Positions 68 through 58,323 of a stretch of DNA of 64,000 nucleotides are shown piece by piece. Under the pieces are notes generated by a model. That model was not told the DNA's origin. It did no database searches and saw nothing but the letters and a program-made list of their open reading frames with translations. A program made the translations under genes and the position numbers. The stretch's first letter is position 1. Each line of letters begins with the position of its first letter. The stretch is from an uncultured bacterium (GTDB lineage: Bacteria; Hydrothermota; UBA3073; NMUJ01; CBEVQO01): positions 64,001 through 128,000 of the forward strand of contig CBEVQO010000003.1 in assembly GCA_965552055.1 (NCBI GenBank), written 5' to 3'.

Positions 68-1365
68 AAGCATTGGCTTATTTTCTGTTGATTTCTTTAT
101 GCATTGAAACTCTTCCCGTAAAAGTAATGGGTGCAAGTGTCGTTCCTTTAACTACCTTTACTTGTATGATTTTATTTCCATTTGTGTTAGTATTAAATTG
201 CAAAAGGCATACTTTTACTCCTGTTTTTCAGAATTTATATTTGTTTTTAAATTATTCGTTATTGCAATCTTTAATAATGTTATTGTTGAGAATGAATTTT
301 TTCTTTGAATCCTCTCAGAGTTTGTTTATTTTTCTGAGGCAATTGCTTTCTCTATTTGCTGGATTTACGGTTTATTTTGTTATGAAAGGAGTACTCGTAA
401 ATTTGAAGGAAGAAGAGATTTTTAAAAGCATGTTGATAGGTTCTGCCTTTGCGATTTTTATTAGTTTAATAAATATCTGGTGGGGATTATCCGGTAGTGA
501 ACTGGCTCGCTGGATAGTTATGACGGTTCGAGGAAGTATAATAGGTATGGGTCGCAATAGACCCTTGAGATGCAGTGGACTTTCGCTGGAGCCAGCCGGA
601 TTTGGCTATTATTTAATTTCCATAACAATACCAAGCATACTCTATTTAATAAAGACAAAGAAAAAGAATATCTTTTATGTTTTTTATTTTATAATTTGCA
701 TGATTGTATTTATTTTTACATTTAGCACTACTGCTTATTTATGTAGTTTTATTTTCTTTTTCTTGAGTTGTTTTTATCCGACTTTTAGAAGAATCGGAAT
801 AAGTGTAATGTGGTTACTCATTTTGGCATTAGGTCTTGCATGTATTCTTATTCCAAATAATTATTTTATTAAGCAAATAAGCTTACTCTTTGCAGGAGAG
901 TTCAATTACTCTTTTTTAACCCGCTTTTACAGTACATTTGGTCCTATAATTAGTTTTTTACAAAACAAGAATATGTTTATGGTATTTGGCTATGGGCTTG
1001 GGGGAAGTGTTTTCCATATTGAAGAAATAATACCTGTGGAGAGTGCGGTAAAAGCGATAGAATTTACTTCTCCAGCAGGCTTGCCTAACTTGAAGACTTT
1101 ATGGGGAAGAATATTGAGTGAAAATGGCATTATTGGTCTAATTTTTTATTTGCTGGTTGTGATTATGAGTATCAAATATGTGAAGCCTTCTTCTCGTGAT
1201 TTTCCTTTAGTTGAAATAATAAAAATATCCTTATTAACAGTGACATTTGCTCAGGCGCTTTCCTACGGTTCTTTTGCGACTCCTTATTTTTGGTTATGGT
1301 TAGCAATGCTTGATTCACTTTACATTAAAAAGAAAGAATTAAAAAATCGGTTGACAAAGCGATAA
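64..1365 (+). CDS. O-antigen/polysaccharide polymerase or ligase-like membrane protein (Wzy/WaaL-like)
   Basis: 433 aa with many hydrophobic segments; R..GLSLEP, FGYGLG and E.GIIG motifs; glycosyltransferase neighbours. Confidence 0.65.
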   Translation: MKALAYFLLISLCIETLPVKVMGASVVPLTTFTCMILFPFVLVLNCKRHTFTPVFQNLYLFLNYSLLQSLIMLLLRMNFFFESSQSLFIFLRQLLSLFAGFTVYFVMKGVLVNLKEEEIFKSMLIGSAFAIFISLINIWWGLSGSELARWIVMTVRGSIIGMGRNRPLRCSGLSLEPAGFGYYLISITIPSILYLIKTKKKNIFYVFYFIICMIVFIFTFSTTAYLCSFIFFFLSCFYPTFRRIGISVMWLLILALGLACILIPNNYFIKQISLLFAGEFNYSFLTRFYSTFGPIISFLQNKNMFMVFGYGLGGSVFHIEEIIPVESAVKAIEFTSPAGLPNLKTLWGRILSENGIIGLIFYLLVVIMSIKYVKPSSRDFPLVEIIKISLLTVTFAQALSYGSFATPYFWLWLAMLDSLYIKKKELKNRLTKR

Positions 1366-1377
1366 AAAAATTAATAT
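1351..1377 (+). promoter_or_regulatory. Putative promoter TTGACA-N15-TAATAT
   Basis: Motif read directly; followed by TT-ATG-ATG as at other promoters in this window. Confidence 0.5.
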
Positions 1378-1445
1378 TTATGATGCTGAAGATTGAAAAA
1401 ATTGCGAAAATGCAAAATAGAAAGGATTAACAGAGGGATTAGAAG

Positions 1446-2108
1446 GTGAAGAATGATCTAAATAAAATTATTTCACCGGGGACATTTTTTTCCAGGATTT
1501 TTTATAGCAAGATTACTCGCTTTTTAGTGCCAATCTTAGCGAAAGCGAAGTTTACTCCGAATCAGGTTACTGTTATTAGTTTGATGCTGGGCTTATTTTC
1601 TGGTTACATTTTTACAAAAGGCACACACTTATTTTTGATTATAGGTGCAATTATTCTTCAAATATCTTACATTTTTGACTATGCCGATGGTCAATTAGCC
1701 AGATATCTTGGTAAGAGTTCATTTTTTGGTGCGTGGTTTGATTCTATAACCGATAGGATAGTTGAATTTGCCGTAATTTTTGGTTTATGTGCAGGGCATT
1801 ATTCACAGGTTCACAAAATCTATATCTGGAAACTTGGATTTGGAACTTTTGGGACTGTTTTTCTTTATAATTATGTAATGGATACTTTTATCCCTGAAAG
1901 GCTAAAGAAGAAAACAGGCAATGCAGAATATACTTTAAGTTTTTCTGAGAGATTCAAATTTGCTACTGGAAGAGATATTGTTTTACTGGTGATAACATTG
2001 GGTGCGCTATTTAATGTCATTCCTGTTGCTTTCTGGGTGCTGATTGCTGGGGTCACTTCTTACTGGATATTCAGGGTTTGTGAATTCTGGAGAAAAAGCA
2101 AGCAATGA
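1446..2108 (+). CDS. CDP-alcohol phosphatidyltransferase family protein
   Basis: TPNQVT and D.ADGQLAR....S..GA..D...D signature. Confidence 0.9.
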   Translation: MKNDLNKIISPGTFFSRIFYSKITRFLVPILAKAKFTPNQVTVISLMLGLFSGYIFTKGTHLFLIIGAIILQISYIFDYADGQLARYLGKSSFFGAWFDSITDRIVEFAVIFGLCAGHYSQVHKIYIWKLGFGTFGTVFLYNYVMDTFIPERLKKKTGNAEYTLSFSERFKFATGRDIVLLVITLGALFNVIPVAFWVLIAGVTSYWIFRVCEFWRKSKQ

Positions 2109-3292
2109 GGATATTGTTTTTAACTCCGAGATTCCTTTTACCGCCAGACCGCGGTGATAAAATTCGTCCACTTTATTTCGCTAAAAGTATAAAAGGTAAT
2201 AAAAGGAAATTGTATTTGATAAGTTTAGTTGATAAACAAATTGATGCTGATTTAATAAATGAATGTAAGGAAGTTTTTACCGAAATATTTTTATTTAAAC
2301 GGGAGAAATTTTTAACTCCAAGACTTTTACTTTACCCTTATCCAGTTCAGTTAGATTTTTTTAAATCAAATAAGTTATTTTCTAAAATTAAAGAAATACT
2401 CGAAGAAATATCTCCACATATAGTTTATATTTATCATTTGCGTATGGCACAATATATTTTACAAATAAAGAGGTGCAATTTTTACACTATAATGGATTTC
2501 GCAGATTGTATCACAATGTTTTTAAGCCGTATGAAAATGCATTCAAAAAACTTTTATAAAGTTTTTTTAAATTTAGAAATACCGCGGGTAAGAAGCTACG
2601 AAAAATATCTTGCAGATAAATTCGATGAAAGCTGGTTTACATCTTCCATTGATTTGAATTTTATGCAAAGATTTGCAAAAGTTAAAAATCCGCAAATCAT
2701 TCCAAATGGTGTGGATACGCAATATTTTTTTGTTTCACAAAAGGATTATAATGAAAAAAATATAATTTTCGTTGGATATATGAGTATTGAAAGTGTGCAT
2801 GCGGTTTTGTATTTTTATAATAGGATTTTCCCTTTAATAAAGAGTGAGATACCCGATGTAAAATTTTACATTGTAGGTGCCAATCCTCCTCCCTGCATTC
2901 GCAATCTTGCTTCTAAAGATGTTATTGTAACTGGATTTGTACCTGATTTGCGTCCATATTATCTTAAAGCGAGAGTTATGGTAGCGCCTTTGCATTTTGT
3001 TGTTGGAATTCAAAATAAAATATTAGAAGCTATGGCAATGAAAGTGCCTGTTGTATGCACACCTGAGGCTAACGAGGGAATATTCGCGAATGATAGCAAA
3101 GAAGTTTTTGTCGAAAAAGATGATGAAAAGTTTGCAAAAAGGGTGATTGAATTACTGAAAGATGAAGAACTTTGTAAAAAAATAGGTGAAAATGCCCGAA
3201 AATTTGTAGAAAAAAATTTTTCATGGAACAAAGTATTGGACAGAATTCAACAAATTGAAAGGAAGATAAAATGTTACAATATAAGTGCTTGA
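2105..3292 (+). CDS. Glycosyltransferase family 4
   Basis: IPNGVD, GFVPDL, KILEAMAM.VPVV and FSW motifs. Confidence 0.9.
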   Translation: MRILFLTPRFLLPPDRGDKIRPLYFAKSIKGNKRKLYLISLVDKQIDADLINECKEVFTEIFLFKREKFLTPRLLLYPYPVQLDFFKSNKLFSKIKEILEEISPHIVYIYHLRMAQYILQIKRCNFYTIMDFADCITMFLSRMKMHSKNFYKVFLNLEIPRVRSYEKYLADKFDESWFTSSIDLNFMQRFAKVKNPQIIPNGVDTQYFFVSQKDYNEKNIIFVGYMSIESVHAVLYFYNRIFPLIKSEIPDVKFYIVGANPPPCIRNLASKDVIVTGFVPDLRPYYLKARVMVAPLHFVVGIQNKILEAMAMKVPVVCTPEANEGIFANDSKEVFVEKDDEKFAKRVIELLKDEELCKKIGENARKFVEKNFSWNKVLDRIQQIERKIKCYNISA

Positions 3293-3315
3293 CAATTTTA
3301 TAATATGGATAAAAT
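3289..3315 (+). promoter_or_regulatory. Putative promoter TTGACA-N15-TAAAAT with short SD-containing leader
   Basis: Motif read directly; AGGGGG SD and ATG at 3329 follow. Confidence 0.6.
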
Positions 3316-3328
3316 GATAGGGGGTAAG

Positions 3329-4429
3329 ATGGCAAAATATAAAATTGCATGGCTACCTGGAGACGGTATCGGTAAAGATGTGCTGGATGCTGCTCGCATT
3401 GTACTTGATGCTGTGAAGTTTGATGCAGAATATATTCATGGTGATATCGGATGGGAATTCTGGAAAAATGAAGGAAATCCATTGCCCGATAGGACAATTG
3501 AAATGATGAAAAATACAGATGCTGCAATGTTTGGTGCAATTACTTCGAAACCGGAAGACGAAGCACAAAAAGAACTTGCTCCTCATCTGCAAGGGAAAGG
3601 ATTAAAATACAGGAGTCCAATTGTTAGATTAAGGCAATTATTTGACCTTTACATTTGTCTGAGACCTGCAAAAGCAATCCCGGGTAATCCCTTAAATTTT
3701 AAGGAAAACATTGACCTCATAATTTTCAGGGAAAATACGGAAGACCTTTATTTTGGTGCAGAGTTATATCCACCTTTGCCTGATGAATTTTTGAAAATTG
3801 AAGGTCTTGAGAAGATACCCAGAGATGCGGCTGTTTCTATGAAAGTGATAACTCCCAGAGGAAGCGAAAGAATAATAAGAGCTGCTTTTGAGTATGCACG
3901 CAAACATGGTAGAAAGAAAGTAACAGCAGTCCATAAAGCAAATGTTGTTCGTGCTGCCGATGGTTTATTCTTGCAAACTGCGAAAAAGATAGCAGAAGAA
4001 TACCCAGACATTGAATTTGACCACGCAAATGTTGACTCATTTTGCATGTGGGTTATAAAAAATCCAGAGAGATTCGATGTAATTGTTGCACCAAATTTAT
4101 ATGGCGATATAATTTCTGACCTTTGCACGCAAATGGTAGGAGGTCTTGGTTTCGCTGCATCCGGCAATATCGGCGATAATTATGCTGTTTTCGAACCTGT
4201 CCATGGTTCAGCTCCTAAATACGCTGGTCAATACAAGGTGAATCCAACGGCTGCGATTTTAGCAGCAAAAATGATGTTAGAATGGCTCGGAGAAATAGAA
4301 AAGGCACAAAAAATAGAAAAAGCTGTGCATGAGGTTATAAAAGAAGGTAAAGTAAGGACTTATGACCTTGGTGGTCAAAATTCAACCCTTGAGATGGCAG
4401 AAGCCATAGCAAAAAAGTGTGAAATTTAA
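3329..4429 (+). CDS. Isocitrate/isopropylmalate (beta-decarboxylating) dehydrogenase family protein
   Basis: LPGDGIG, RENTED.Y, VHKANV, NLYGDIISDL and EPVHGSAPKYAG motifs. Start moved to 3329 because of the SD. Confidence 0.92.
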   Translation: MAKYKIAWLPGDGIGKDVLDAARIVLDAVKFDAEYIHGDIGWEFWKNEGNPLPDRTIEMMKNTDAAMFGAITSKPEDEAQKELAPHLQGKGLKYRSPIVRLRQLFDLYICLRPAKAIPGNPLNFKENIDLIIFRENTEDLYFGAELYPPLPDEFLKIEGLEKIPRDAAVSMKVITPRGSERIIRAAFEYARKHGRKKVTAVHKANVVRAADGLFLQTAKKIAEEYPDIEFDHANVDSFCMWVIKNPERFDVIVAPNLYGDIISDLCTQMVGGLGFAASGNIGDNYAVFEPVHGSAPKYAGQYKVNPTAAILAAKMMLEWLGEIEKAQKIEKAVHEVIKEGKVRTYDLGGQNSTLEMAEAIAKKCEI

Positions 4430-4440
4430 AGGGGGGTGCA

Positions 4441-5331
4441 ATGAAAAAGTCAACATTACTTAAAAAGATGATTTATGAGAGAAAGGGTCTCGTTGTTCCT
4501 GGTGCCTATGACTGTGTTAGTGCAAAGCTAATAGAGAGAGCGGGTTTTAAAGCGCTTCAGGTGAGTGGATTTGGGCTTGCAGCTTGTTATCTTGGAAAGC
4601 CCGATGTCGGACTTTTGACATTTACGGAAATGCTGAATTTCACGAAAAACATAGTTGATGCAGTTGATATTCCTGTAATGGCAGATGGAGATACAGGTTT
4701 TGGAAATGCATTGAATGCTATGCGAACGACAGAGGAATTCATAAAAGCGGGATGTGCCGGGATGAATATTGAAGACCAGGTGTTTCCAAAAAGATGTGGA
4801 CACCTTGAAGGCAAACAGATAATTCCTATGGAAGAAATGGTATTGAAAATAGAAGCATGTGTTGAAGTTAAGAAGAAGTTAGACCCCGACTTTGTGATAA
4901 ATGCAAGGACAGATGCGATAGCAGTTGCAGGTATTGATGAGGCAATAAAAAGAGGCAACGCTTATGCGAAAGCAGGAGCAGATTTAATTTTTGTTGAAGC
5001 ACCAAGGACAAAAGAAGAGATTGAGAGAGCAGTAAAAGAAATTGATGCTCCTGTGAGTATAAATCTTTTTGATGCAGTTAAAGGTGGTAAAACTCCGCTT
5101 GTTGCAATAGAATGGCTTCGTGAGATAGGTGTTGCAAGGATTTCAATCCCTGTTGGACCTTTATTTGCAGCGATTAAAGGATTGCAGAATTATCTTGATG
5201 CGATAAAAGGAGATAGATTGGCAGAAGGAAGGACAGACCTTGTGTGCGATTTCGATTGGTTTAAAGAATTCATAGGATTTACAGAATATAGAAAATTAGA
5301 AAAGAAATTCTTACCAAAGTTCGTGGAATAG
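4441..5331 (+). CDS. Isocitrate lyase/PEP mutase superfamily C-C lyase (2-methylisocitrate lyase or 2,3-dimethylmalate lyase-like)
   Basis: PGAYD, DGDTGFG, IEDQVFPKRCGH, NARTDA and AGADLIFVE motifs. Confidence 0.9.
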   Translation: MKKSTLLKKMIYERKGLVVPGAYDCVSAKLIERAGFKALQVSGFGLAACYLGKPDVGLLTFTEMLNFTKNIVDAVDIPVMADGDTGFGNALNAMRTTEEFIKAGCAGMNIEDQVFPKRCGHLEGKQIIPMEEMVLKIEACVEVKKKLDPDFVINARTDAIAVAGIDEAIKRGNAYAKAGADLIFVEAPRTKEEIERAVKEIDAPVSINLFDAVKGGKTPLVAIEWLREIGVARISIPVGPLFAAIKGLQNYLDAIKGDRLAEGRTDLVCDFDWFKEFIGFTEYRKLEKKFLPKFVE

Positions 5332-5340
5332 GAGGATGAT

Positions 5341-5673
5341 ATGGTAGTGGGCTTGCCTAAAGAATTAATGGATGCACTGGGAGATAGGGGTTCGCAGGCG
5401 TTGGCAGAAGAGAATTTTGAAAGGAGATTGTCAGAAGAAATGGCAAAAGTTAATAAGAGGATAACGGAAGAAGTTGCGAAAGTTAATAAGAGGATAACAG
5501 AAGAAACAGCGAAATTGGATAAAAGGATAACAGAAGAAGTATCAAAAGTATATGTTCATATTAGCAATGTATTTTCGAGGTTATTAAGGTGGATGTTCGC
5601 TTTCTGGGCTACCACATTTGTTACACTCATTGGCTTCCTTATCGCTTTATTATCTGTTTTGAAGGGGGGATAA
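5341..5673 (+). CDS. Small coiled-coil protein with C-terminal membrane anchor (DUF1640/CCDC90-like)
   Basis: 11-residue repeats EE.AKVNKRIT, then LLRWMFAFW and a TM helix; GGAGG SD. Confidence 0.7.
   Translation: MVVGLPKELMDALGDRGSQALAEENFERRLSEEMAKVNKRITEEVAKVNKRITEETAKLDKRITEEVSKVYVHISNVFSRLLRWMFAFWATTFVTLIGFLIALLSVLKGG
5434..5550 (+). repeat. 33-bp tandem coding repeat (~3.5 copies)
   Basis: gaagaa...aagaggataac units start at 5434, 5467, 5500 and 5533. Confidence 0.85.
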
Positions 5674-5674
5674 G

Positions 5675-6931: not shown

Positions 6932-6940
6932 GAGGGGAAA

Positions 6941-7441: not shown

Positions 7442-7444
7442 TAA

Positions 7445-12362: not shown

Positions 12363-12389
12363 ATTATGATAAATTAGACAAAATGTCAA
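12363..12389 (-). promoter_or_regulatory. Putative fbp promoter TTGACA-N15-CATAAT
   Basis: Read on the minus strand; followed by GGAGGGG SD and ATG at 12343. Confidence 0.55.
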
Positions 12390-12654: not shown

Positions 12655-12681
12655 TTGACATATTGAGTCATTGATTATATT
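12655..12681 (+). promoter_or_regulatory. Putative promoter TTGACA-N15-TATATT, leaderless
   Basis: ATGs at 12684 and 12687 directly follow; no SD. Confidence 0.55.
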
Positions 12682-23229: not shown

Positions 23230-25517
23230 CACTATTAATCATCGCGATGCTAAAAATTAATCCCATTCCAACTTTATATTTGAATATCGGAGAGTCAGCA
23301 GAGATAAGGTTATCACCTTATATTTTGAGTACTTCAAAGATTTCTATATCCTCTGTTAAAATTTTGGGTAAAGATACAAAAAATTTTGAGATTTTTAATG
23401 TTGAAGATAGGATTTTTTTAAGACCCGCTAAAAAAATCAAAGGTATTTTGTTTTTAAGCTTTGAAGTTAAAAATGTAGAAGGTGAAATAGCCAAAGGTGT
23501 AGTTCCCATCGTTTACAGGGAGGAACATAAAGTTAAATTTATTTATCATGGTAAACCAGGAGAAGAAGTTTATCTTGCAGGTGAGTTTAACAATTGGAAT
23601 CCTAAATCATTGAAAATGGAGGATAAAGGGGGAGGTATTTATGTTGTAGAGTTATCGCTTCCTCCAGGCAGATATCAGTATAAATTTGTTGTAAATGGAA
23701 ACTGGATAAGAGATGAGAAAAATCCTTTAACAGCACCGGATGGTTTTGGAGGATTAAATTCTGTAATTGAAGTGAAAGGAAAAGAGTTTAACATAATTCC
23801 AGATAAACTTAAAAAGGAAGAAAATAAAATAAGCTTTAGTGTGGAATTTGAAGGTAAGATAAAAGATGTATATCTTGTGATGGACAACAAAGTTCTTCCT
23901 AAATGCTGGAAAATTAAAGGAAAAAAGATAACTTTTGAAGTGAAAAATGTTGAAAAGGGTGAGCACTGGTTTAGATTATTTGTTGGAGATGGTGATAATT
24001 TCTCAGAATTATTTTTTAAAGAATACATTGGAATACCCACAAAATTTGACTGGCGTGATGCTATAATTTATTACATTGTAGTAGATAGGTTTTGCAATGG
24101 AGATAAAGAAAATGATAAACCAATAAATGATCCAGAATTATCGTGGAAGTGCAACTTTCAAGGCGGTGATTTTGAGGGTATAATTCAAAAGTTAAAAGAG
24201 GGTTACTTTAATAAACTTGGCATAAATTGCATCTGGTTGTCACCTGTCTACAAAGCACCTGATAAAGCGTATAAAGAGAGTTTTCCGCCATATCGCAAAT
24301 ACTCTGGGTATCATGGATACTGGCCTGTAAGCCCTACAGAGGTTGAACCACGTTTTGGCGGTGCAAAAAGATTGAAAGAATTGATAAATCTTGCACATAA
24401 AAAAGGGATTAAAATAATGTTTGATCTTGTCTTAAACCATGTACATATTGAACATCCTTGGTATAAAAATCATAAAGATTGGTTTACGCCACTTTATCTT
24501 CCTGATGGGAGGAAAAATTTAAGGCTTTTTGATGAATTTCCTTTAACAACTTGGTTTGATGAGTTTGTGCCTTCATTTGATTTCAGTAAAAAAGAAGTTA
24601 TTGATACTGTTTGTGAGAATGCAATATGGTGGCTTCGTGAATTTGATGTTGATGCAGTGCGTCTTGATGCTGTGAAACATATCCCTCATAATTTTTGGCG
24701 TGAGTTTAGAAGAAGGATAAAAGAAGAAATTGAAATACCTTATAACAAAGAGATTTATTTATTAGGTGAAACAATCTGGAGTAGGGAGAAGATAAAAGAA
24801 TATGTGAATCCAGAAGAATTAACGGGGCAATTTGATTATCCTTTGTACTGGGTGATAAGGGATGTTTTTGCGTTTAATCGCAGGGACTTCCGAGAGCTTG
24901 AGCATGAGCTTTTGCAATCTGAGAGGATTTACGGCGATGCTATAATGTCGCCGTTCCTCGGAAATCAGGATTTTGCGCGATTTATCTCATACATTGAAGG
25001 GCTAAGTGGAGATGAAAAAGAAATAGGTTGGCACAATCCTCCCGAAGTTAAAGATACTCTGAGCTATAAGAAGTTGCAATTGGCATTTGCATTTTTGATG
25101 ACATTGAAAGGAGCTCCTTTGATTTTTTATGGCGATGAGATTGGAATGCCGGGTGCAGGCGACCCGGATAACAGAAGATTTATGAGATTCGGAGACAAAT
25201 TGAAGAAAGAGGAAAAGGAAACCTTTGAGGTTATAAGCAAATTATGTCATTTTAGACGAAAACATCCTGCTTTAAGGTATGGTGTACGTCGCACACTTTA
25301 TATCGATGATGATTTTTGGGTTTATGAATTAAAATATTTCAACGATGATGTGCTTGTTCTTTTAAATAGAGGGAGAGATGAAAGAGAGTATGAACTTAAA
25401 GGTGATTGGCTCAACGAATTTACAGGTGAAAAAATAAGCAGTAAGGTAAAAGTTTCTCCTTTTTCCTTTGTATATTTAACAAAAATCAACAATGATAAAC
25501 TTGACTTTCAAAAATAA
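23226..25517 (+). CDS. GH13 alpha-amylase family glycoside hydrolase with CBM48
   Basis: DRF.NGD, GGDFEGI, YHGYW, DLVLNH, RLDAVKH, GE, FLGNQD and YGDEIG motifs. Confidence 0.92.
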   Translation: MTLLIIAMLKINPIPTLYLNIGESAEIRLSPYILSTSKISISSVKILGKDTKNFEIFNVEDRIFLRPAKKIKGILFLSFEVKNVEGEIAKGVVPIVYREEHKVKFIYHGKPGEEVYLAGEFNNWNPKSLKMEDKGGGIYVVELSLPPGRYQYKFVVNGNWIRDEKNPLTAPDGFGGLNSVIEVKGKEFNIIPDKLKKEENKISFSVEFEGKIKDVYLVMDNKVLPKCWKIKGKKITFEVKNVEKGEHWFRLFVGDGDNFSELFFKEYIGIPTKFDWRDAIIYYIVVDRFCNGDKENDKPINDPELSWKCNFQGGDFEGIIQKLKEGYFNKLGINCIWLSPVYKAPDKAYKESFPPYRKYSGYHGYWPVSPTEVEPRFGGAKRLKELINLAHKKGIKIMFDLVLNHVHIEHPWYKNHKDWFTPLYLPDGRKNLRLFDEFPLTTWFDEFVPSFDFSKKEVIDTVCENAIWWLREFDVDAVRLDAVKHIPHNFWREFRRRIKEEIEIPYNKEIYLLGETIWSREKIKEYVNPEELTGQFDYPLYWVIRDVFAFNRRDFRELEHELLQSERIYGDAIMSPFLGNQDFARFISYIEGLSGDEKEIGWHNPPEVKDTLSYKKLQLAFAFLMTLKGAPLIFYGDEIGMPGAGDPDNRRFMRFGDKLKKEEKETFEVISKLCHFRRKHPALRYGVRRTLYIDDDFWVYELKYFNDDVLVLLNRGRDEREYELKGDWLNEFTGEKISSKVKVSPFSFVYLTKINNDKLDFQK

Positions 25518-25527
25518 GAGTTATAAT
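25501..25527 (+). promoter_or_regulatory. Putative promoter TTGACT-N15-TATAAT, leaderless
   Basis: Overlaps the last codons of the GH13 gene; ATGs at 25530 and 25533 follow. Confidence 0.6.
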
Positions 25528-34743: not shown

Positions 34744-34771
34744 ATTTTAATTCGTTTTGTATAAAAGTCAA
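34744..34771 (-). promoter_or_regulatory. Putative promoter TTGACT-N16-TAAAAT, leaderless
   Basis: Overlaps the stop of the ABC ATPase gene; TA-ATG-ATG follows. Confidence 0.5.
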
Positions 34772-36289: not shown

Positions 36290-36316
36290 AATTTATTGAT
36301 AAACTAAAAATGTCAA
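36290..36316 (-). promoter_or_regulatory. Putative promoter TTGACA-N15-TAAATT, leaderless
   Basis: Lies in the 3' end of the upstream gene; ATG at 36284 is 5 nt downstream. Confidence 0.5.
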
Positions 36317-39056: not shown

Positions 39057-42000
39057 TTACCTTAATTTTATGGTCTTTTTTACAACTTTATTCCTGCCTG
39101 CTTTTACAAGATAGAAGTATATTCCTGGTGGGACATTTCTGCCTTTGTCATCTTTTCCCTGCCATGTTACAGAATAAAATCCCGGCTTTTTCTTTTCGTC
39201 AACCAATACTTTTATCGATCTTCCTGTTATATCGATTATTTCAATCTTCACTTTTACTTCTTTTGGTAATTGATATTTAATCTTTGTGAGGTTATTAAAT
39301 GGATTTGGATAGTTACTTACTTTGAATATCCTTGGTGGTACTTCCTGTAATCCCACGCATGATGCAAGTAATAACACTTTTACAATGGGTTCATCAGGGT
39401 CATTTGAATAAATCTTCATAGTATCTGAGAAATTGCCTGTATCCTGTGGATTAAACCTTATTGTAAACTCTGTGCTGTCACCGGGTAATATTGTCTCTGG
39501 TAAAGCTGGTGAAACTAACGCAAAAGGTGAGAATAGTTCAACGCTATCAATTATAAGGTCAGCATTGCCCACATTACTTACCCACATCTGCCAATTTATT
39601 GTATCGTTAGGAGAGCATGCTCCAAAATCGTGTATTGTATTCGAAAGGGCAATATCGGGTGCAAGTGCCTTTCCAGAAAGATATATTTTTGCAACGGGTT
39701 CATCTGGGTCATTTGAGTAAATTTCCATAGTGTCGGAGAAACTGCCTGTATCCTGGGGATTGAATCTTATTGTAAACCCTGTGCTATTACCCGGTGATAT
39801 AGTTTGAGGTAAAGAAGGTGAAATTAATTTAAAGGGTAAATTTATTTTGACGCTGTCAATTAATAAGCTTTCATTACCTGCATTCTTTACCCACATCTGC
39901 CAATCTATTGTGTCATAGGGTGAACATGTCCCAAAATCATGTAGAGTATCTGAAAGGACTATATCAGGTGCAACCGCTCTCCCAGAAAGATATACTTTTG
40001 CAACGGGTTCATCAGGGTCATTTGAGTAAATTTCCATAGTGTCGGAGAAACTGCCTGTATCCTGGGGATTGAATCTTATTGTAAACCCTGTGCTATTACC
40101 CGGTGATATAGTTTGAGGTAAAGAAGGTGAAATTAATTTAAAGGGTAAATTTATTTTGACGCTGTCAATTAATAAGCTTTCATTACCTGCATTCTTTACC
40201 CACATCTGCCAATCTATTGTGTCATAGGGTGAACATGTACCAAAATCATGCAAGGTATCCGAAAGGACAATATCGGGTTGCGGTGGTCCTCCTTTGTACT
40301 TAATAAAGAACTTCTTCGTGGCATCAATATTGCTTTGAAGTGTTATCTCGTCGCCTGCTGGACTAACCCGTATTATTTGATTTATGTCGTCAATCCTTAT
40401 TGTATCATTACCTGTGCTTTCAAATACATAAGCCATACCTTCATAAACTCCAGAATTTGTATCTGTTTCAACGAGCCCAACTGCTATACCCTGTGGATAT
40501 ACGCTCGATTTTATTATTACCACTGCGATTTCATGTATATGTGCATCCCTATCCTGCCCGTAAATCCTTATATAAAGTGTATCTTCTCCGCCAAGTGAGT
40601 CACTGACCTTTGAGAAATCTTTATCATAATTTTTTAAAGAGTCAATGCTAACAGGTTCGCCAGGCACACCCGGTATAAAATCATTAAACCAAGGAGTATG
40701 GTCATTTAAACCTGCTATTTTTGCAGAAATATCTGCATCTGTTGTATCCCACCAGAAGTTATTTTCAAGATTCATCGTCACACTGGAAAGATTTTTTATT
40801 TCTGTATCCGGCTGAAAAGTATTGTAGTATATGTGGCTATATGTAAGCTTAAATGTTACTCCAGAATCTGCATCAGCCGTAATATAAGCGAGCCCTGCAC
40901 TTCTTAGATAATCGCCATTATCTACAATGAATGAACTATCAATTATGACCTTTGAATTAAGTGTGTCGTATATTGCACCTCCATATTTGCTTTTGTTCAT
41001 ACCGAGAACACATTTTGTTAACTTCGCAGAAGAATTATATCTTATGTAAATTCCACTGCCATTTCTTCCAGCATAATTATCTATAATAACAGCGCCTAAT
41101 AATGTCGGTGATGAATGATAAATATGAATTCCACCACCATCATAATAGGCATGGTTATTTACGATGATGTTATTTTCTAATGTAGGTGAAGAAGCACCAG
41201 CGATGTAAATTCCGCCTCCAAAAGGTGTGCGGTTGTTTTTTATGGTGTTGCCTTTTAATGTTGCTGAAGATTGACCTGCAATAAAACATCCGCCTCCACG
41301 GTCAGAAGCAAGATTATTCGCGATGGTATTACCTATTAATGTGGCTGAAGACCTGGCAATATACACTCCACCACCCTGCTTGGCAGAATTGTCTGTGATG
41401 ATATTATGGGATAAAATTGGTGAAGAATAAAAATCAATGTAAATTCCGCCTCCGTAGTCAGTTGAGTCATTTTTGATGATATTATTTATAAGTGTCGGTG
41501 AAGAATAATTAAAAATGCTAATTCCACCACCATAATCTTCAGCATAATTGTTTTCGATTATATTTCCTGATAATACAGGGGAAGAGTGGTACAAAATTTC
41601 GATTCCTCCTCCCCTATAATCAGCATAATTACCTGTAATTATGCAGGAATCTATTCTGGGTGAGGCAGACTTGATAAATATTCCTCCACCCATAATATGA
41701 GGAGAAGGTCCCTTTGCTTTGCCATCTTTTATTGTGAAGCCCCTTATTAGTGCTGCGTGCGATGCGGTATCCCATCCGCTGCAATAAATGACATGCCATG
41801 CGGTGTCTGTGCCATCTTCCGATACTGCTGTTAGCGTGCATTTTTCTGCTCCGTTTTCACTCACGAGCACCACAGAATCACGCATTATCAAGCCCACAGT
41901 GTCATTTATAAATAGATGATAGGTTCCATTCTTTACCAGCACGGTATCAATCCCCGGGTCTGCCCATGCAGAATTAATCGCTTTCTGTAATGAGTCACCT

Positions 42001-42101: not shown

Positions 42102-42128
42102 ATTATAATCAACATTTTCCTCTGTCAA
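42102..42128 (-). promoter_or_regulatory. Putative promoter TTGACA-N15-TATAAT
   Basis: Perfect hexamers 15 bp apart; GGAGGG SD and ATG at 42083 follow. Confidence 0.7.
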
Positions 42129-42629: not shown

Positions 42630-42656
42630 TTGACATAAAAAAAATTTTGTTAAAAT
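42630..42656 (+). promoter_or_regulatory. Putative hypF promoter TTGACA-N15-TAAAAT, leaderless
   Basis: Extended TGn before the -10 box; GTG start 5 nt downstream; no SD. Confidence 0.65.
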
Positions 42657-42661: not shown

Positions 42662-44887
42662 GTGGGATTTAAAATTTTGATAAAAGGAGTGGTGCAGGGA
42701 GTGGGTTTCCGTCCCTTTCTCTACAGAACAGCAACAAAATTTAATCTCAAAGGAATAATAAGAAATACTGCAAGAGGAGTTGAGATGTTAACAGATTGCG
42801 ATGAAAATACTTTGCAAAAATTGATAAAAGAAATAAAAGAAAAAGCACCGCCTTTATCGAACATAAAAGAAATAATTTATGAAGAGTGGGAAGGAAATCT
42901 GCCAGATGACTTACAAATCGTTGAGAGTGAAAATGAAGAATCGAAAAAAGTTTTAATACCGCCGGATATTGCACCATGTGATGAGTGTTTGAGAGAACTT
43001 TTTACTCTTACGGATAGAAGATATAGATACCCTTTTATAAACTGCACAAACTGTGGACCTCGCTTTTCCATAATAAAAGATATTCCCTATGATAGGGAAA
43101 AAACCACCATGAGCATTTTTATTATGTGTGATGAATGCAGGAAAGAGTATGAAGACCCCCTTAACCGTCGCTTTCACGCAGAACCAAACGCCTGTCCCAA
43201 ATGCGGACCCCAAATAACGCTTTATGACCCAAAAGGAAATTTGATAGAAAAGGGAGATAAAGCAATTAAACTTACACAAAAATTTATAAAAGAAGGCAAA
43301 ATAGGGATAATAAAAGGCATAAGCGGTATGCATATAGTTTGCGATGCAAGAAAAAAGGAAGCAGTTAGAAGAATAAGAGCGATAAAATTAAGAAAGACAA
43401 AACCATTTGCAGTTATGTGCAAAGATTTGGAAGAAGTTAAAAAAATTGCAAAAATTTCAAAGGAAGAAGAAAATATTTTGTTATCTCCACAGCGTCCGAT
43501 TGTGCTACTGAAAAAATCTCCAGATTATGACCTTGCAGAAGAAGTTGCTCCAAAAAATAGATATGTGGGTGTTATTTTGCCATATTCGCCTTTGCATTAC
43601 CTATTGATGGAAGATTTAGAATGCATAGTTGATACAAGTGCAAATATAACAGATGAACCCATTATTTATAAAAATGAAGAGGCATTTTCGAAGTTTAAGA
43701 ATAAAGTAGATTTTTTCCTTCTTCACAATAGAGAAATATTTATGAGATCTGATGATAGTGTGTTGCAGGTAGTGTCTGGCGAACCTCGTTTTATTCGTCG
43801 TGCAAGAGGATATTGTCCTTTGCCTTTTGAATTTGATGAGAAATTTCCACAAATATTGGCTGTGGGAGCTGAACTGAAAAATACATTTTGCCTTTCAAAA
43901 GAAAATCTTATTTTTATGAGTCAACATATAGGAGATTTGGCTGATTTTGAAACACTTTCTTTTTTTGAAGATGTTTTAAATCATTTTAAAAAGATTTTTG
44001 ACATCGAACCTCGAATTTGTGTTTGTGATATGCATCCAGATTACTTATCAACAAGGTGGGCACAGCAAAATTTCAAAAAAGTTTTGAAAGTTCAGCATCA
44101 TTATGCTCATATTTTGAGCTGTATTTTGGAAAATAATTTAAAGGGAAAAGTGATAGGTGTTGCTTTTGATGGTACCGGGTATGGTGCAGATGGCGCAGTT
44201 TGGGGTGGTGAATTTTTAATATGCGATGCAAAGAATTTTGAGCGTGTTTTTCATTTTGAATATGTGCCGATGCCCGGAGGTGAGAAAGCAGTAAAAGAAC
44301 CCCGTCGCATGGCTTTGAGTTATCTTTATCTTTCAGGATGTAAAGATTACATTCATAAAATATGGGATAAAAAGGAAGCAGAAGTTTTAATAAAGATGAT
44401 TGATAAAAAGATAAACTGTCCTTTAACTTCAAGTTGCGGAAGATTATTTGATGCTGTATCTTCAATTTTGAGAATTTGTGATTTTAATTCTTATGAGGGG
44501 GAAGCGGCTATAAATCTTGAAATGATTGCAGAAGGTAATCATCAAGTTTATTCATTTGAAATAGGAGACAAAAAAATAAGTTTTAAAAAGATGATAAGAG
44601 AAATAGTCAGAGATTTGAAAAGAGGAGCGCCTGCGAGCGAAATTTCTATGAAATTTCACAATACTATTTGTGAAGTGGTTAAAAAAGTTTGTTTAATTTT
44701 AAGGGAGAGATATGGAATAAATAAAGTGTGTTTATCTGGAGGTGTTTTTCAGAATAGAATATTATTTGAAAAATTGCTGGAAGATTTAAGGGAATTAAAA
44801 TTTGATGTGTATAGCAATTTTAAAGTTCCTGTTAATGATGCTGGTATATCGCTGGGTCAAATCTTGACATCGTTAGGATATGATTAA
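42662..44887 (+). CDS. hypF: [NiFe]-hydrogenase maturation carbamoyltransferase
   Basis: GVVQGVGFRPF, zinc fingers (NCTNCGPR, RRFHA.PNACP.CGP), RRARGY, QHHYAH, FDGTGYG.DG..WGGE and NDAGISLGQ. Confidence 0.97.
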   Translation: MGFKILIKGVVQGVGFRPFLYRTATKFNLKGIIRNTARGVEMLTDCDENTLQKLIKEIKEKAPPLSNIKEIIYEEWEGNLPDDLQIVESENEESKKVLIPPDIAPCDECLRELFTLTDRRYRYPFINCTNCGPRFSIIKDIPYDREKTTMSIFIMCDECRKEYEDPLNRRFHAEPNACPKCGPQITLYDPKGNLIEKGDKAIKLTQKFIKEGKIGIIKGISGMHIVCDARKKEAVRRIRAIKLRKTKPFAVMCKDLEEVKKIAKISKEEENILLSPQRPIVLLKKSPDYDLAEEVAPKNRYVGVILPYSPLHYLLMEDLECIVDTSANITDEPIIYKNEEAFSKFKNKVDFFLLHNREIFMRSDDSVLQVVSGEPRFIRRARGYCPLPFEFDEKFPQILAVGAELKNTFCLSKENLIFMSQHIGDLADFETLSFFEDVLNHFKKIFDIEPRICVCDMHPDYLSTRWAQQNFKKVLKVQHHYAHILSCILENNLKGKVIGVAFDGTGYGADGAVWGGEFLICDAKNFERVFHFEYVPMPGGEKAVKEPRRMALSYLYLSGCKDYIHKIWDKKEAEVLIKMIDKKINCPLTSSCGRLFDAVSSILRICDFNSYEGEAAINLEMIAEGNHQVYSFEIGDKKISFKKMIREIVRDLKRGAPASEISMKFHNTICEVVKKVCLILRERYGINKVCLSGGVFQNRILFEKLLEDLRELKFDVYSNFKVPVNDAGISLGQILTSLGYD

Positions 44888-44890
44888 AAT
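44864..44890 (+). promoter_or_regulatory. Putative promoter TTGACA-N15-TAAAAT, leaderless
   Basis: Lies in the last hypF codons; ATG at 44896 is 5 nt downstream. Confidence 0.62.
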
Positions 44891-48940: not shown

Positions 48941-48987
48941 TTATCCGCCTTTCATCTAGTGCTAATTTTCTTAGATTTTCATGTTTG

Positions 48988-49035
48988 TGTCCGATAAATG
49001 TCCGAAATATGTCTGATATGTCCGATAAATGTCTG
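48988..49035. repeat. Five TGTC(C/T)G direct repeats at ~11-bp spacing
   Basis: Motifs at 48988, 48999, 49010, 49019 and 49030. Confidence 0.7.
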
Positions 49036-52305: not shown

Positions 52306-52308
52306 ATT

Positions 52309-54816: not shown

Positions 54817-54818
54817 AA

Positions 54819-54845
54819 ATTTTACTTAAATATTATTGTTGTCAA
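54819..54845 (-). promoter_or_regulatory. Putative mod promoter TTGACA-N15-TAAAAT, leaderless
   Basis: TT-ATG-ATG follows (54816 and 54813). Confidence 0.65.
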
Positions 54846-54855
54846 GAATAAAATC

Positions 54856-55332
54856 TTACAAATTCGACCACTTTTGTGCGAGTTCGTCTCTGCGAGGTTT
54901 ATAAACTTTTTCGTAGAACAGGCGCTGTGATTTCAATACATCTTCGCCTGCTTCTTTACAAATTTTTACCGCTTCTTCCCATGCTTTATCAAATTTGCCA
55001 CCAAATCTTTTCTCAATTTGGCGTTCAAAATCTTTCTCTGTTTGTATTTCGCCGCCTATTGTAAAATACTTTTTGCCTTCGATTTCCACACAAAAAGCCA
55101 TTTCATCACCAACTTTGAATTGCTCTATTTTCAACTCTTTCTTATATTTCCTTTTATATTCGGGTTTTAATTCTACGGGTTTTTGTATCTTTTTGAATCC
55201 TTTCTTTGCTGCTGCATAAAATATTGCACGATTTAAACCAAAACTTTTTGCAGATTCCAAAGGAAGTAGATTAAGGACATAAACTCTTGCTGCCTGCAAT
55301 GTAGCCATAACCTGAAACCTACCTACCATCAT
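54856..55332 (-). CDS. Conserved hypothetical protein
   Basis: Likely start 55332/55329 (MVGRFQVMATLQAAR..GLNRAIFYAAAK). The longer track ORF overlaps the next gene. Confidence 0.7.
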   Translation of the reverse strand: MMVGRFQVMATLQAARVYVLNLLPLESAKSFGLNRAIFYAAAKKGFKKIQKPVELKPEYKRKYKKELKIEQFKVGDEMAFCVEIEGKKYFTIGGEIQTEKDFERQIEKRFGGKFDKAWEEAVKICKEAGEDVLKSQRLFYEKVYKPRRDELAQKWSNL

Positions 55333-55334
55333 TA

Positions 55335-55396
55335 TTTTTATGCAAAAGAGAAATTTGTCAATAAGAATCTTGACAAAGTATATAAATGAGTAAAAT
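55335..55396. promoter_or_regulatory. Back-to-back divergent promoters: TTGACA-N15-TAAAAA (minus) and TTGACA-N15-TAAAAT (plus)
   Basis: tgtcaa at 55356-55361 and ttgaca at 55370-55375; starts at 55329 and 55403. Confidence 0.6.
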
Positions 55397-55402
55397 AGGT
55401 TG

Positions 55403-56605
55403 ATGATTAAAAGACTAAAAGTTAAAAATTTTAAGAGTTTTAAAGAAATTGATGTTAACTTGGGCAGATTTAATGTTTTAATAGGACCAAATGCTTCTGG
55501 GAAAACAAATTTTACCCAGATTTTTAATTTCATAAGAGATATTATAAATTTAGGTTTAGAGGATGCAATATTTTCTCAAGGAGGTCCCAATTATATTCGT
55601 AATTTAAATTGCAAAGAAGATTTTTTGACAATAAATATTTCGTTAGATGAAAAATTATCTCTACATAGGAAAGGGACTCCTTTTGGGATAAATATAGAAG
55701 AAACAGAATATGAGATAGATATTTCTTTTCGAGGTAAAAGTCAATTCATAATAGATAGGGAAATAATATTTGAACATTGCGAATTTATTGACACAGAAAA
55801 AAAAGAAGCGAATAAAGGATTTATAAAAGTTTTGAGAGAAAGAAATGATGTAAAAGTTGAAATAAATTCTCCTGAAAATTTTCCTCTAAAAGAAAATGAT
55901 ATATGTTCGCCTTTACTTCCACAAATAATAGGAAAATATAGTTTACTACGCATGATCTCTCCGCCCTTTGCAGACCAGTTTTTAAAATTAAATAAAATAA
56001 AAGTATTTAACATTAATCCTCAAGAGGCAAAGAAAAATAGACCTATCTCAGGAAGATTGTCATTAGAAGAGGATGGAAGCAATTTGCCTCTTATCCTGAA
56101 AAACATATTAGAAGATGATGAGAAGAGGAATAAATTGTTAAATTTAGTGAATGACATTTTACCTTTTGTAGAAGATATTATTATAGAAAAAAGGTTCGAA
56201 GAGAAAGAGTTATCGTTTAAATTGTATGAAAAATATTTAATGGAAGATATTCCTTCGTCTTTGATATCTGATGGTACTATTAACTTAATTATTATGATAA
56301 TCATGCTTTATTTCGAGAAATTGCCGCTTGTTATAATCGAAGAACCTGAAAGAAATATTCACCCATCCATAATTTTTCGAATAGTAAACATGATGAAAGA
56401 AGCATCAAAAGATAAACAAATTATTATTACAACACATAATCCATTATTTGTAAAGTATGTTGATTTGGAAAATTTACTTTTGATAAAAAGAGATGAGGAA
56501 GGAAACTCTGTAATAACTTGTGCAGAAGAACATGAAGAAATAAAAATATTTTTGGAAAATGAAATAGGTCTGGATGAACTTTTTGTGAAAAATATATTAT
56601 CATAG
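55403..56605 (+). CDS. AAA_21/AAA_15 ABC-type ATPase (defence-associated family)
   Basis: NFKSF, GPNASGKTN, L..DGSNL, SDGT, IEEPE..IHP and ITTHNP motifs. Confidence 0.88.
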   Translation: MIKRLKVKNFKSFKEIDVNLGRFNVLIGPNASGKTNFTQIFNFIRDIINLGLEDAIFSQGGPNYIRNLNCKEDFLTINISLDEKLSLHRKGTPFGINIEETEYEIDISFRGKSQFIIDREIIFEHCEFIDTEKKEANKGFIKVLRERNDVKVEINSPENFPLKENDICSPLLPQIIGKYSLLRMISPPFADQFLKLNKIKVFNINPQEAKKNRPISGRLSLEEDGSNLPLILKNILEDDEKRNKLLNLVNDILPFVEDIIIEKRFEEKELSFKLYEKYLMEDIPSSLISDGTINLIIMIIMLYFEKLPLVIIEEPERNIHPSIIFRIVNMMKEASKDKQIIITTHNPLFVKYVDLENLLLIKRDEEGNSVITCAEEHEEIKIFLENEIGLDELFVKNILS

Positions 56606-56608
56606 TAA

Positions 56609-57139
56609 ATGGAATATAAGCTCCTTTTCATATTCGTTGAGGGAGAAAATGAAATGAGATTTTTTGAAAGAATGCTTGAACCTCTATTAAAACAAAAATA
56701 TTCTTGCATTAAAATTGTTCCTTATTCCAAAAAAGAAAGAAAATGGGATTGGATAAATGATTTTATTAGATCAATCAACAAGATGAAATTTGCCAGTTAT
56801 ATTTTTGTGACAGATATAAATACTGCTCCATGCGTTGCTGCAAGAAAAGAAGAAATAAAAAATAAAATTCGAAATATCTCTGATGATAGAATAATGGTAG
56901 TGGTGAAGGAAATCGAAAGTTGGTATATGGCTGGAGTAAGCGAAAATTTTCTCAGCAAAAATAAAATAAAGGTACCTAAAAATACCGATGATTTCATGAA
57001 AGAAGATTTTGAAAAAATTATTCCTAAAAAATTTTCAAAAAGAGAATTTTTAATAGAAATGTTAAAGTATTTTTCATGTGAGAGAGCCCAAAAGAAAAAT
57101 AAATCGTTTAAATATTTTATGACAAAATTCGATTGCTGA
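56609..57139 (+). CDS. TOPRIM-like partner protein (DUF4276/RloB-like)
   Basis: IFVEG..E, FVTD.N, KEIESWY.AG and N.SF..F motifs. Confidence 0.65.
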   Translation: MEYKLLFIFVEGENEMRFFERMLEPLLKQKYSCIKIVPYSKKERKWDWINDFIRSINKMKFASYIFVTDINTAPCVAARKEEIKNKIRNISDDRIMVVVKEIESWYMAGVSENFLSKNKIKVPKNTDDFMKEDFEKIIPKKFSKREFLIEMLKYFSCERAQKKNKSFKYFMTKFDC

Positions 57140-57206
57140 TGAAGTTTCTGAGTCGAAATAGAAATAAGAGTAAGGCAAAGGCTTAAATTTTAAAAGAGAA
57201 TATTAA

Positions 57207-58244
57207 TCACTTTTTATAAGGAATGCGTAATAAATCAAATGTTATAATTGAATTGAGACGCTTAACTTTTATCCTTGTTTTTGTCCCAGGTTTTCCTTCC
57301 AACAATTTTATGATTTCAGAAAAAGGTTTATTGCATGTATTCACGCTGTCTATTTCGATTATCATATCATATTTTTTTATACCTATACTGTCTGCGGGTG
57401 TTCCTTTTATTACCTCTAAAACAGTAGGATAATAAGAATTACCATCAACTGTAAAAATAGCAATTCGAACTCCTGTTTCACATTTAAAGGCTGAGGAATC
57501 TATATTAGAACATATGGGGAAATTTTTTAAAATATCTCGTATAACAAATTGTGAACAAACCCTTATATCTGGATTTTTAGAAACACCCACACCGCATCCC
57601 GACCAGACATTTTTAAGTGTTTTCCCATCATATACCCATATAATTGCCGAAGGTAAAAAATAACCTACTGTATACCCGGGTTTGATGTAAGTTTTTGTAG
57701 TTAAATATCCCGGAACATAAATAGTTTTAGTATCCATTCCTTGCCATGTACCCCAAGTGTGGGAAAAGTTTGAATTATATGAGGACATGTTAAATCTATA
57801 GTAAGAGAAATCATGAATAGTGATGTATTTACCTGGCACCCATACAGGAACTTGTTTAATTGATGGCGGAACTTTTATTTCTTTATATTCGATATCCACT
57901 TGAGCTGTGATTAAAAAGTCAGGAGTAGAATCTATTGGAACAAATTTATACCCTTTTGCTTCGAATATGTTTCTAATGAAAAATAAAATCTGGCGTTCTA
58001 AAATTGGATTCATTTTAACATCTTTTGCGATTATTGATAAAGGGAACACTGAAAATGTTCTGTAACTTGTGAAATCTGCTTCTGGTTCTTTGTATACTGA
58101 TACAGTTGGTTTACATTTTAAGAATGCCGGACTTAAGTTATTACCGTAATATAACTTAACTTTTGTAATGGATGATGTGGAAGCACAAGATACAAATTTT
58201 AAGAGTACTAAAAGAAATACAAAATAAATTAACTTCACTTTCAT
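57207..58244 (-). CDS. Lipoprotein with DUF4136-like domain and C-terminal PDZ domain
   Basis: VSC lipobox; ADFTSYRTF, KGY.....PDFLI; V..GTPA...GIKK.D.I.EID. Confidence 0.7.
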   Translation of the reverse strand: MKVKLIYFVFLLVLLKFVSCASTSSITKVKLYYGNNLSPAFLKCKPTVSVYKEPEADFTSYRTFSVFPLSIIAKDVKMNPILERQILFFIRNIFEAKGYKFVPIDSTPDFLITAQVDIEYKEIKVPPSIKQVPVWVPGKYITIHDFSYYRFNMSSYNSNFSHTWGTWQGMDTKTIYVPGYLTTKTYIKPGYTVGYFLPSAIIWVYDGKTLKNVWSGCGVGVSKNPDIRVCSQFVIRDILKNFPICSNIDSSAFKCETGVRIAIFTVDGNSYYPTVLEVIKGTPADSIGIKKYDMIIEIDSVNTCNKPFSEIIKLLEGKPGTKTRIKVKRLNSIITFDLLRIPYKK

Positions 58245-58250
58245 CACATT

Positions 58251-58323
58251 ATTTTATACAAAATTTTTATTTTGTCAAGCGTAAAAATTAAAAAAGTTGA
58301 CAATACTAATTTGTGATTAAAAT
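58251..58323. promoter_or_regulatory. Divergent promoters: TTGACA-N16-TAAAAT (minus) and TTGACA-N15-TAAAAT (plus, purL), both leaderless
   Basis: tgtcaa at 58273-58278; ttgaca at 58297-58302 and taaaat at 58318-58323; ATG at 58329. Confidence 0.65.

Follow-up and report, generated by a model that had tools for sequence, protein, structure and literature searches.

A spacer of 17±1 bp between the -35 and -10 boxes is treated as near-universal for promoters read by primary sigma factors, and the feature of the holoenzyme which determines this length is unsettled. Over 49 species with mapped start sites, a model trained on E. coli finds that 17 bp is predominant and that most spacers measure 16-18 bp (PMC12641261). 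At spacers of 14-15 bp the footprints of the B. subtilis sigmaA holoenzyme are very weak or missing (PMC3035472), which would imply that a standard enzyme serves promoters with such short spacers poorly. In the Bacteroidota the primary sigma, which has no region 1.1, reads a -33/-7 promoter with the box TANNTTTGY (PMC12632263). The promoters described here were noticed in a stretch of 64,000 nucleotides (nt), hereafter the window, from an uncultured bacterium of the phylum Hydrothermota (contig CBEVQO010000003.1, positions 64,001 to 128,000), where TTGACA and TAWAAT boxes are separated by 15 bp (N15). The genome from which the window derives (G000) comprises 2.23 Mb in 15 contigs and is 97% complete. 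The 15-bp spacing is confirmed as a real and strong departure from the near-universal spacer rule, and within the phylum surveyed it is restricted to the order to which this genome belongs.

When all 1818 TTGACA sites of G000 are considered, TAWAAT follows at 14, 15, 16, 17 and 18 bp in 12, 253, 47, 17 and 8 cases respectively, with a chance expectation of about 7 per spacing as judged by local shuffling of the 30 nt downstream. A sequence-only reading of the window had proposed the 15-bp spacer and suggested a genome-wide histogram as its check; the mode is indeed 15 and not 17. The looser -10 form TAnnnT is found 416, 93 and 106 times at 15, 16 and 17 bp, 56 of the 106 being second readings of N15 sites, and 355 sites are readable at 15 bp only as against 50 at 17 bp only. 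At 15 bp this form follows 329 of the 592 TTGACA sites outside coding sequence and 87 of the 1226 within it, with genes delimited by a simple custom gene caller. An expectation-maximisation (EM) fit, in which 759 non-coding TTGACW sites served to learn the motif downstream, attributes fractions of 0.63 to 15 bp, 0.07 to 16 bp, 0.00 to 17 bp and 0.29 to no motif. The motif learned in this way is TGAT-TAWAAT, with T at 0.96 (-12), A at 0.98 (-11) and T at 0.85 (-7) in the 15 register; the best likelihood was reached from two of six starts, and the other four gave the same motif with the motif window shifted. Among -35 variants an N15 peak is seen only with TTGACA and TTGAC[TCG], and with none of the other one-mismatch forms.

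In addition to the hexamers, the G000 elements are characterised by a C before the -35 box, an A/T-rich upstream tract, a G-rich stretch before the -10 box and conserved A- and T-tracts within the N15 spacers, and their TG lies at -16/-15 as opposed to the canonical -15/-14 in the compared genome G013, whose RpoD keeps E458. Promoters of stable RNA genes (tRNA, rRNA) have a common spacer, with an A-tract after the -35 box and a T-tract then G before the -10 box. Both promoters upstream of the 16S gene are N15. An upstream TTGACA is present at 26 of 47 tRNA and tmRNA genes, and 20 of these 26 promoters read at 15 bp (three of them also at 17 bp), while one reads at 17 bp only and five have imperfect boxes. 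At divergent gene starts (n=334) a spacing of 15 or 16 bp is found in 224 and of 17 bp only in 11; strict N15 accounts for 200 of the 334, so the earlier statement that almost every transcription-unit start carries such an element holds for a majority and was somewhat overstated genome-wide. The elements thus have the -35 box, the -10 box and the placement, in gene orientation, at unit starts, rRNA and tRNA genes that mark a sigma70-type promoter, and lack the 17±1 bp spacer. Judged from sequence, TTGACA-N15-TAWAAT elements are very likely the housekeeping promoters of G000.

The position of the box relative to the genes gives an indication of where transcription may begin. The mature 5' end of the tRNA or tmRNA lies 6-9 nt past the box in 17 of the 20 N15 cases. 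Among the 487 TTGACW-N15-TAnnnT sites of G000, starts of open reading frames of at least 100 amino acids (aa) peak at 5 nt (152) and 6 nt (62) past the box, and ATG or GTG is located 5-7 nt past it in 235. About half of the N15 promoters therefore look leaderless, with transcription predicted to start at or just before the start codon. A box in the 17-bp register would leave only 3-4 nt before the start codon, which makes the 15 register the sensible one. The transcription start optimum of E. coli is 7-8 nt after the -10 box (PMC12641261), and the G000 promoter seems compact on both sides; in the relative G014 in-frame ATGs are found 6-10 nt past the box. At leaderless N15 promoters an in-frame NTG is often found just before the ATG (e.g. 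42630 and 58297 of the window), and longest-frame start calls are therefore often one codon too early.

All 15 elements that had been picked out in the window, 13 with N15 and two with N16, are present at their positions:

1351..1377, + strand: N15, TTGACA/TAATAT, promoter-like, inside the 3' end of the open reading frame (ORF) 64-1365
3289..3315, + strand: N15, TTGACA/TAAAAT, then a G-rich ribosome-binding-like stretch and an ATG 13 nt downstream
12363..12389, - strand: N15, TTGACA/CATAAT, with a Shine-Dalgarno-like sequence and an ATG 19 nt downstream (fructose bisphosphate aldolase/phosphatase)
12655..12681, + strand: N15, TTGACA/TATATT, also readable at 17 bp, with in-frame ATGs 2 and 5 nt downstream
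25501..25527, + strand: N15, TTGACT/TATAAT, overlapping the upstream stop, with an in-frame ATG 5 nt downstream
34744..34771, - strand: N16, TTGACT/TAAAAT, with an in-frame ATG 5 nt downstream
36290..36316, - strand: N15, TTGACA/TAAATT, with an in-frame ATG 5 nt downstream
42102..42128, - strand: N15, TTGACA/TATAAT, also readable at 17 bp, with a Shine-Dalgarno-like sequence and an ATG 18 nt downstream
42630..42656, + strand: N15, TTGACA/TAAAAT, with the hypF GTG 5 nt downstream
44864..44890, + strand: N15, TTGACA/TAAAAT, overlapping the hypF stop, with an in-frame ATG 5 nt downstream (potassium channel)
54819..54845, - strand: N15, TTGACA/TAAAAT, with an in-frame ATG 5 nt downstream (DNA methyltransferase-like gene)
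55335..55361, - strand: N15, TTGACA/TAAAAA with an imperfect -10 box, back to back with 55370, with an in-frame ATG 5 nt downstream
55370..55396, + strand: N15, TTGACA/TAAAAT, with an in-frame ATG 6 nt downstream (AAA ATPase)
58251..58278, - strand: N16, TTGACA/TAAAAT, back to back with 58297, with an in-frame ATG 6 nt downstream
58297..58323, + strand: N15, TTGACA/TAAAAT, with the purL ATG 5 nt downstream

The consensus TTGACA/TAAAAT that had been read from these sites is right overall, with deviations at 12389 (CATAAT), at 55361 (TAAAAA) and in the -35 box of 25501 and 34771 (TTGACT), and the -10 consensus is better written in the broader form TAWAAT. The element at 12655 is not the only one with an alternative 17-bp reading, which is shared by 42128. 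At nine of the 13 N15 sites and at both N16 sites a long frame has its in-frame ATG or GTG 5-6 nt past the box, and a Shine-Dalgarno-like sequence follows three N15 sites (3289, 12389 and 42128). The ATGs 2 and 5 nt downstream of the 1351 element open only a frame of 14-15 codons ahead of the gene at 1446, which is CDP-alcohol phosphatidyltransferase-like; this short frame (1380-1427) is lysine-rich and may be a leader peptide or due to chance. The 3289 element heads an operon of the isocitrate/isopropylmalate dehydrogenase family, the 12655 element precedes a subtilase-like gene and sugar ABC operon, and the 25501 element precedes the gene of a 1064-aa protein with a type IX secretion system (T9SS) tail. 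Two more N15 matches, at 39833-39859 and 40142-40168, fall within a gene that contains repeats and probably arose by chance. Back-to-back promoters are frequent in the genome as a whole: upstream of the 487 N15 sites, 154 reverse -35 boxes occur at distances of up to 34 nt with a peak at 8-10 nt, and 115 of them are part of complete N15/16 promoters. G/C-rich intergenic sequence with short palindromic repeat units adjoins promoters at 61100-61560 and about 12400, and an Rfam search of the window gave no matches.

The distribution of this spacing was surveyed by eye in tables from 161 genomes of this phylum with at least 80% completeness, which are kin and whose counts are not independent. The top spacer is 15 bp in only three of the 161, all belonging to one order: G000 and two members of its sister family (G001-G003), namely G001 and G002, with 99/46/26 and 89/35/20 TTGACA-Nn-TAnnnT matches at 15/16/17 bp. 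In G003, the fourth member of the order, N15 matches number 62, as against 12 in the reversed control. The suggestion of a lineage-wide promoter code is supported in that the sister family also peaks at 15 bp and none of the other sampled families does. EM fits on sampled DNA give 0.46 at 15 bp and 0.20 at 16 bp for G001 (554 kb), 0.32 and 0.37 for G002 (112 kb, only 30 sites), a strict 17 bp with canonical TG for G013 and mixtures of 16 and 17 bp for G014, G023 and G030; the fit on G004 did not converge on one motif. Elsewhere the mode is family-specific: 16 bp in f17, f24 and f27, 17 bp in f4, f8, f22 and f35, and about 17-18 bp in G088 and f29, the G088 peak amounting to about 36 versus 29 by eye among the first 100 listed matches. 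Little TTGACA-TAnnnT signal at 15, 16 or 17 bp is seen in f20, f28 and f30. Genomes with a 16-bp mode include G082 (19/612/134 at 15/16/17 bp), G074 (27/373/63) and G035 (20/342/53).

Five genes of the sigma70 family are present in G000, encoding RpoD, a 265-aa short sigma, a protein which reads as FliA-like and two small proteins. RpoD (575 aa; G000:C7:57373-59100, after dnaG) has a Pfam set that includes PF03979 and comprises regions 1.1, 1.2, 2, 3 and 4. It falls among RpoDs at 100/100 in a tree of 35 rows, midpoint-rooted and made without a clade-rejection test. It is nevertheless diverged, scoring 285-288 bits, below the TIGR02393 cut-off of 354 that only 49 of the 161 phylum genomes pass, and its mean identity to other families is 48% versus 57-63% for RpoDs of the same class, while RpoB is ordinary. 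The nearest relatives in an RpoD search share 45-53% identity with none between 53% and 100%, a related-locus search returned only four distant loci, and among the closest named proteins for RpoD and the short sigma most are annotated as WOR-3 and two RpoDs as Cloacimonadota, from which the phylum is probably WOR-3. The residues Q437 and R451 and the sigma4.2 helix-turn-helix, which reads the -35 box, are kept. Changed are T440M, R441K and E458N (E. coli numbering; M399, K400 and N417 in G000), whose contact roles are taken from PMC3130263, and one residue is deleted in sigma3.0, which is the case in one of 140 measurable RpoD-like sequences (six more were not measurable). Two single insertions and a loss of acidic residues are found around the sigma finger. 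Conserved columns are changed at 15 of 34 positions in sigma2.3-3.0 (residues 384-420), a region picked after looking, versus one of 20 in sigma4.2 (Fisher p=0.017), and the diverged RpoD of G030 has six of 20 changes in sigma4.2; the G000 pattern is more suggestive of remodelling than of decay. A occupies position -8 in 69% of the 487 N15 sites of G000, as it does in the RpoD-led relatives G013 (79%) and G023 (67%), the latter a genome in which a short sigma was not found. A mixture analysis of the G000 promoters gives one class as the best by the Bayesian information criterion (BIC), by which a two-class mixture is unsupported.

In the sister family no rpoD was found by three queries in G001, G002 and G003, which are 99, 87 and 66% complete and none of which is closed. 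In both genomes with dnaG (G001 and G002) this gene overlaps the start of an unrelated gene:

L084:416-2721 (G001:C89): dnaG overlapping an unrelated gene
L105:1255-3560 (G002:C20): dnaG overlapping an unrelated gene

The sigmas left are the short Bacteroidota-type sigma, which is the only one of group 1/2, and one that is ECF-like. In G000 the short sigma (G000:C5:66580-67377) has no region 1.1 (PF03979) and lies in a degP-sigma-M23 operon, with named Bacteroidota neighbours at 41% identity. In the tree of 35 rows it clusters, together with its phylum relatives, with the primary sigmas of Bacteroidota and is separated from RpoD at 100/100, and it keeps the -35 residues. It also occurs in many 16- and 17-bp genomes without the N15 class, and the short sigmas of the order share no indel. 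The -10 box of the sister family is TAnnTT, with T at -8 in 77% of 65 N15 sites, and the simplest reading of A at this position in G000 versus T in the family without rpoD is that the two families use different sigmas at their 15-bp promoters. In the sister genomes the short sigma would act as the primary sigma. Five other genomes with apparent rpoD loss were followed (G085, G105, G120, G139 and G142): rpoD of G139 stands next to dnaG but its frame is broken, G120 is also without dnaG, and G085 and G105 have dnaG at contig edges; G139 is a single-contig genome in which the frame (G139:C1:180647-183471) ends early (441 aa), possibly through a sequencing error. In family f4, which is strictly 17 bp (L139-L144), the short sigma no longer has the paired tryptophans and its sigma3-4 linker is partly lost. 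The usual rpoBC operon is split in G001 of the sister family, where rpoB is followed by an unrelated gene (L080:3117-7385, C18) and rpoC lies on another contig (L270, C31), and the two genes are on different contigs in G002 (L269, G002:C115) and G003 as well.

The order's holoenzyme would appear to have its optimum at 15-16 bp, and the ruler is very probably intrinsic to protein, whether led by RpoD, by the short sigma or by the core only. The explanation placed first, which is held with about as much doubt as confidence, is that in G000 the optimal spacer has shortened from 17 to 15 bp and that the remodelled RpoD is the most likely reader. The helix-turn-helix for the -35 box would be unchanged and the grip on the -10 box and adjacent spacer (sigma2.3-3.0) rebuilt, such that T440M, R441K, E458N and the sigma3.0 deletion could alter the DNA path and bring sigma4 onto the -35 box two base pairs sooner, perhaps with the help of point changes in the core; in the sister family, which lacks rpoD, the short sigma may have taken over inherited 15-16 bp promoters. 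Several points weigh against this explanation. The sister family has 15-16 bp without RpoD, the RpoD changes being unnecessary for the phenotype there and unable to explain the spacing of the whole order, and a shared cause in core, DNA or short sigma would be more economical. Sigma alone fails to discriminate spacing without core (PMC3035472). The lack of intermediate RpoD relatives among those found makes the order of events untraceable, the codon-usage percentiles of the two sigma genes (32nd and 17th) are uninformative, and family f15 has an equally diverged RpoD (274-296 versus 288 bits in G000) yet spaces its promoters at 16-17 bp. In each of the 15 f15 genomes sampled RpoD is diverged, with best E of 1e-74 to 1e-88 as against about 1e-95 or better in most other genomes, and is accompanied by an intact short sigma. 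The 'see-saw' notion of spacers shortening through RpoD divergence alone was dropped, as f15 equals its sister f10 at 16 bp. The earlier suggestion of an altered primary sigma is supported circumstantially by the diverged RpoD with its cluster of changes and one-residue deletion in sigma2.3-3.0, but cannot account for the whole order by itself. It is unlikely that housekeeping promoters are read by the short sigma in the whole order through an intrinsic fit to 15-16 bp, with RpoD dispensable, lost in one family and drifting or secondary in G000. Its place as the only group 1/2 sigma in all three sister genomes, the dnaG arrangement, the retained -35 residues, the grouping with Bacteroidota primary sigmas and the divergence of the G000 RpoD beside an ordinary RpoB are in keeping with this; the TAWAAT box of G000 in place of TAnnTT, the conserved RpoD sigma4.2, and the occurrence of the short sigma in genomes without the N15 class and without an order-specific shared indel speak against it.

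The comparison of the core extended to beta and to the N-terminal quarter of beta'. Slightly less likely than the short sigma as reader is that point changes in it set 15 bp for any sigma throughout the order, with the sigma changes as side effects. This would accommodate two unrelated sigma families that appear to read 15-bp promoters in sister families, and the holoenzyme, which fixes the sigma2-sigma4 distance, needs core to discriminate spacing (PMC3035472). The beta' zipper, which contacts spacer DNA (PMC3173786), has an order-specific E to D change (three of three order genomes, E in 22 of 22 others), and a K to R change beside the flap-tip helix occurs in four of four order genomes versus one of 24 others; spacer changes are known to rotate the sigma4-flap-tip module (PMC10216364). 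Both substitutions are conservative, however, and a zipper R to K change is limited to G000. The indels in the RpoB flap or RpoC zipper that had been suggested for this lineage are absent on alignment: the order has none in the flap or tip helix of RpoB (28 genomes compared) and no order-specific ones in the RpoC zipper, zinc-binding domain or clamp helices. A 4-residue insertion in the clamp head is found in G000 alone. A shortened insertion after the flap, which we take to be beta-i9, was rejected as the cause since it is the same in 16/17-bp families. An ordinary enzyme helped by overwound DNA through reverse gyrase, by the A- and T-tract shape of the spacer or by an accessory protein that aligns the boxes is improbable. 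Relaxed DNA favours short spacers (PMC9303308) and reverse gyrase is found above cut-off in five of 31 genomes, including G000, G001 and G002, which suggests that the G000 organism is a thermophile; yet the other two are the 17-bp G026 (internal stop) and the 16-bp G029, and the Thermus and Thermotoga controls have it too. With the optimum angle of 543 degrees from PMC9303308, 15 bp would by our arithmetic need strong positive supercoiling with a superhelical density of about +0.065, and GyrA is present in G000 and G001. (No GyrA match was found in G013, which is 90% complete.) Stand-alone CarD was not found, only Mfd-like frames of 800-1000 aa in five of five genomes. The least probable explanation is that the -10 box is mis-registered, with a true 17-bp spacer and an extended TA motif, or that the element binds another protein. 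The N15 sites which also read TAnnnT at 17 bp would fit, but the EM frequencies, the excess of exclusive 15-bp readings, the leaderless ATGs and tRNA 5' ends, which leave no space for a box 2 nt downstream, and the canonical 17-bp result of the same method in G013 all oppose it. A wider proposal, which remains tentative and is favoured less than the RpoD-led explanation, is that the ruler itself was recalibrated by a few transferable changes so that textbook boxes are read at 15 bp with two unrelated sigma families, the sister family being an independent, non-Bacteroidota case of rpoD replacement by a sigma without region 1.1.

The rRNA, tRNA and most operon promoters of G000 at 15 bp, together with relatives at 16, 17 and about 18 bp, lend themselves to a swap experiment with named candidate residues, and a phylum whose family modes run from 15 to about 18 bp would, if true, form a natural series in which to seek the residues determining spacer length. 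Promoter predictors trained on E. coli will misread such lineages. The system also suggests a possible route to orthogonal promoter-polymerase pairs, and the apparent rpoD loss in the sister family offers a second view on the change of primary sigma in the Bacteroidota.

A literature search, which most subscription papers lie outside, turned up no description of a housekeeping mode of 15 bp or of promoters in WOR-3. Compared with sigma70/SigA promoters of E. coli and B. subtilis, those of G000 have the same hexamers, C before the -35 box, A/T-rich tract, G-rich stretch and sigma4.2 residues, and differ in the spacer mode of 15 bp (about 90% of fitted promoters), in the position of TG and in a start that is apparently 5-6 nt past the box. 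The spacing of Bacteroidota promoters corresponds to an ordinary 16-18 bp geometry. The order resembles the Bacteroidota in that its short sigma belongs to the same clade and the sister family, without rpoD, uses TAnnTT, the first six letters of TANNTTTGY (PMC12632263), but its -35 box is TTGACA, no TG follows the -10 box, the spacing is 15-16 bp and RpoD is still present in G000. Of the -33/-7 promoter (TANNTTTG box with a TTTG upstream element), no trailing TG was seen in G000 or the sister family among TTGACW-anchored sites, the search being confined to these. The nominally short spacers of sigma32 and sigma28 promoters reflect longer motifs and correspond to 16-17 bp when equivalent hexamers are compared. 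These sigmas have small regulons and other motifs, unlike G000, and the sigma4-flap-tip orientation and spacer contacts differ among sigmas (PMC10216364, PMC12784957). As in the leaderless Deinococcus-Thermus genes with an adjacent -10 box, TAnnnT lies a few bases before the start codon in a large share of genes (PMC12340547), whereas G000 has a perfect -35 box at a fixed short spacing and a figure legend of that study tests the -35 box at 17 bp. The 16-bp families represented by G082, G074 and G035 have, like G000, consensus hexamers and a lineage-wide shift below 17 bp but, unlike it, stay within the accepted 17±1 bp and have kept a normal RpoD.

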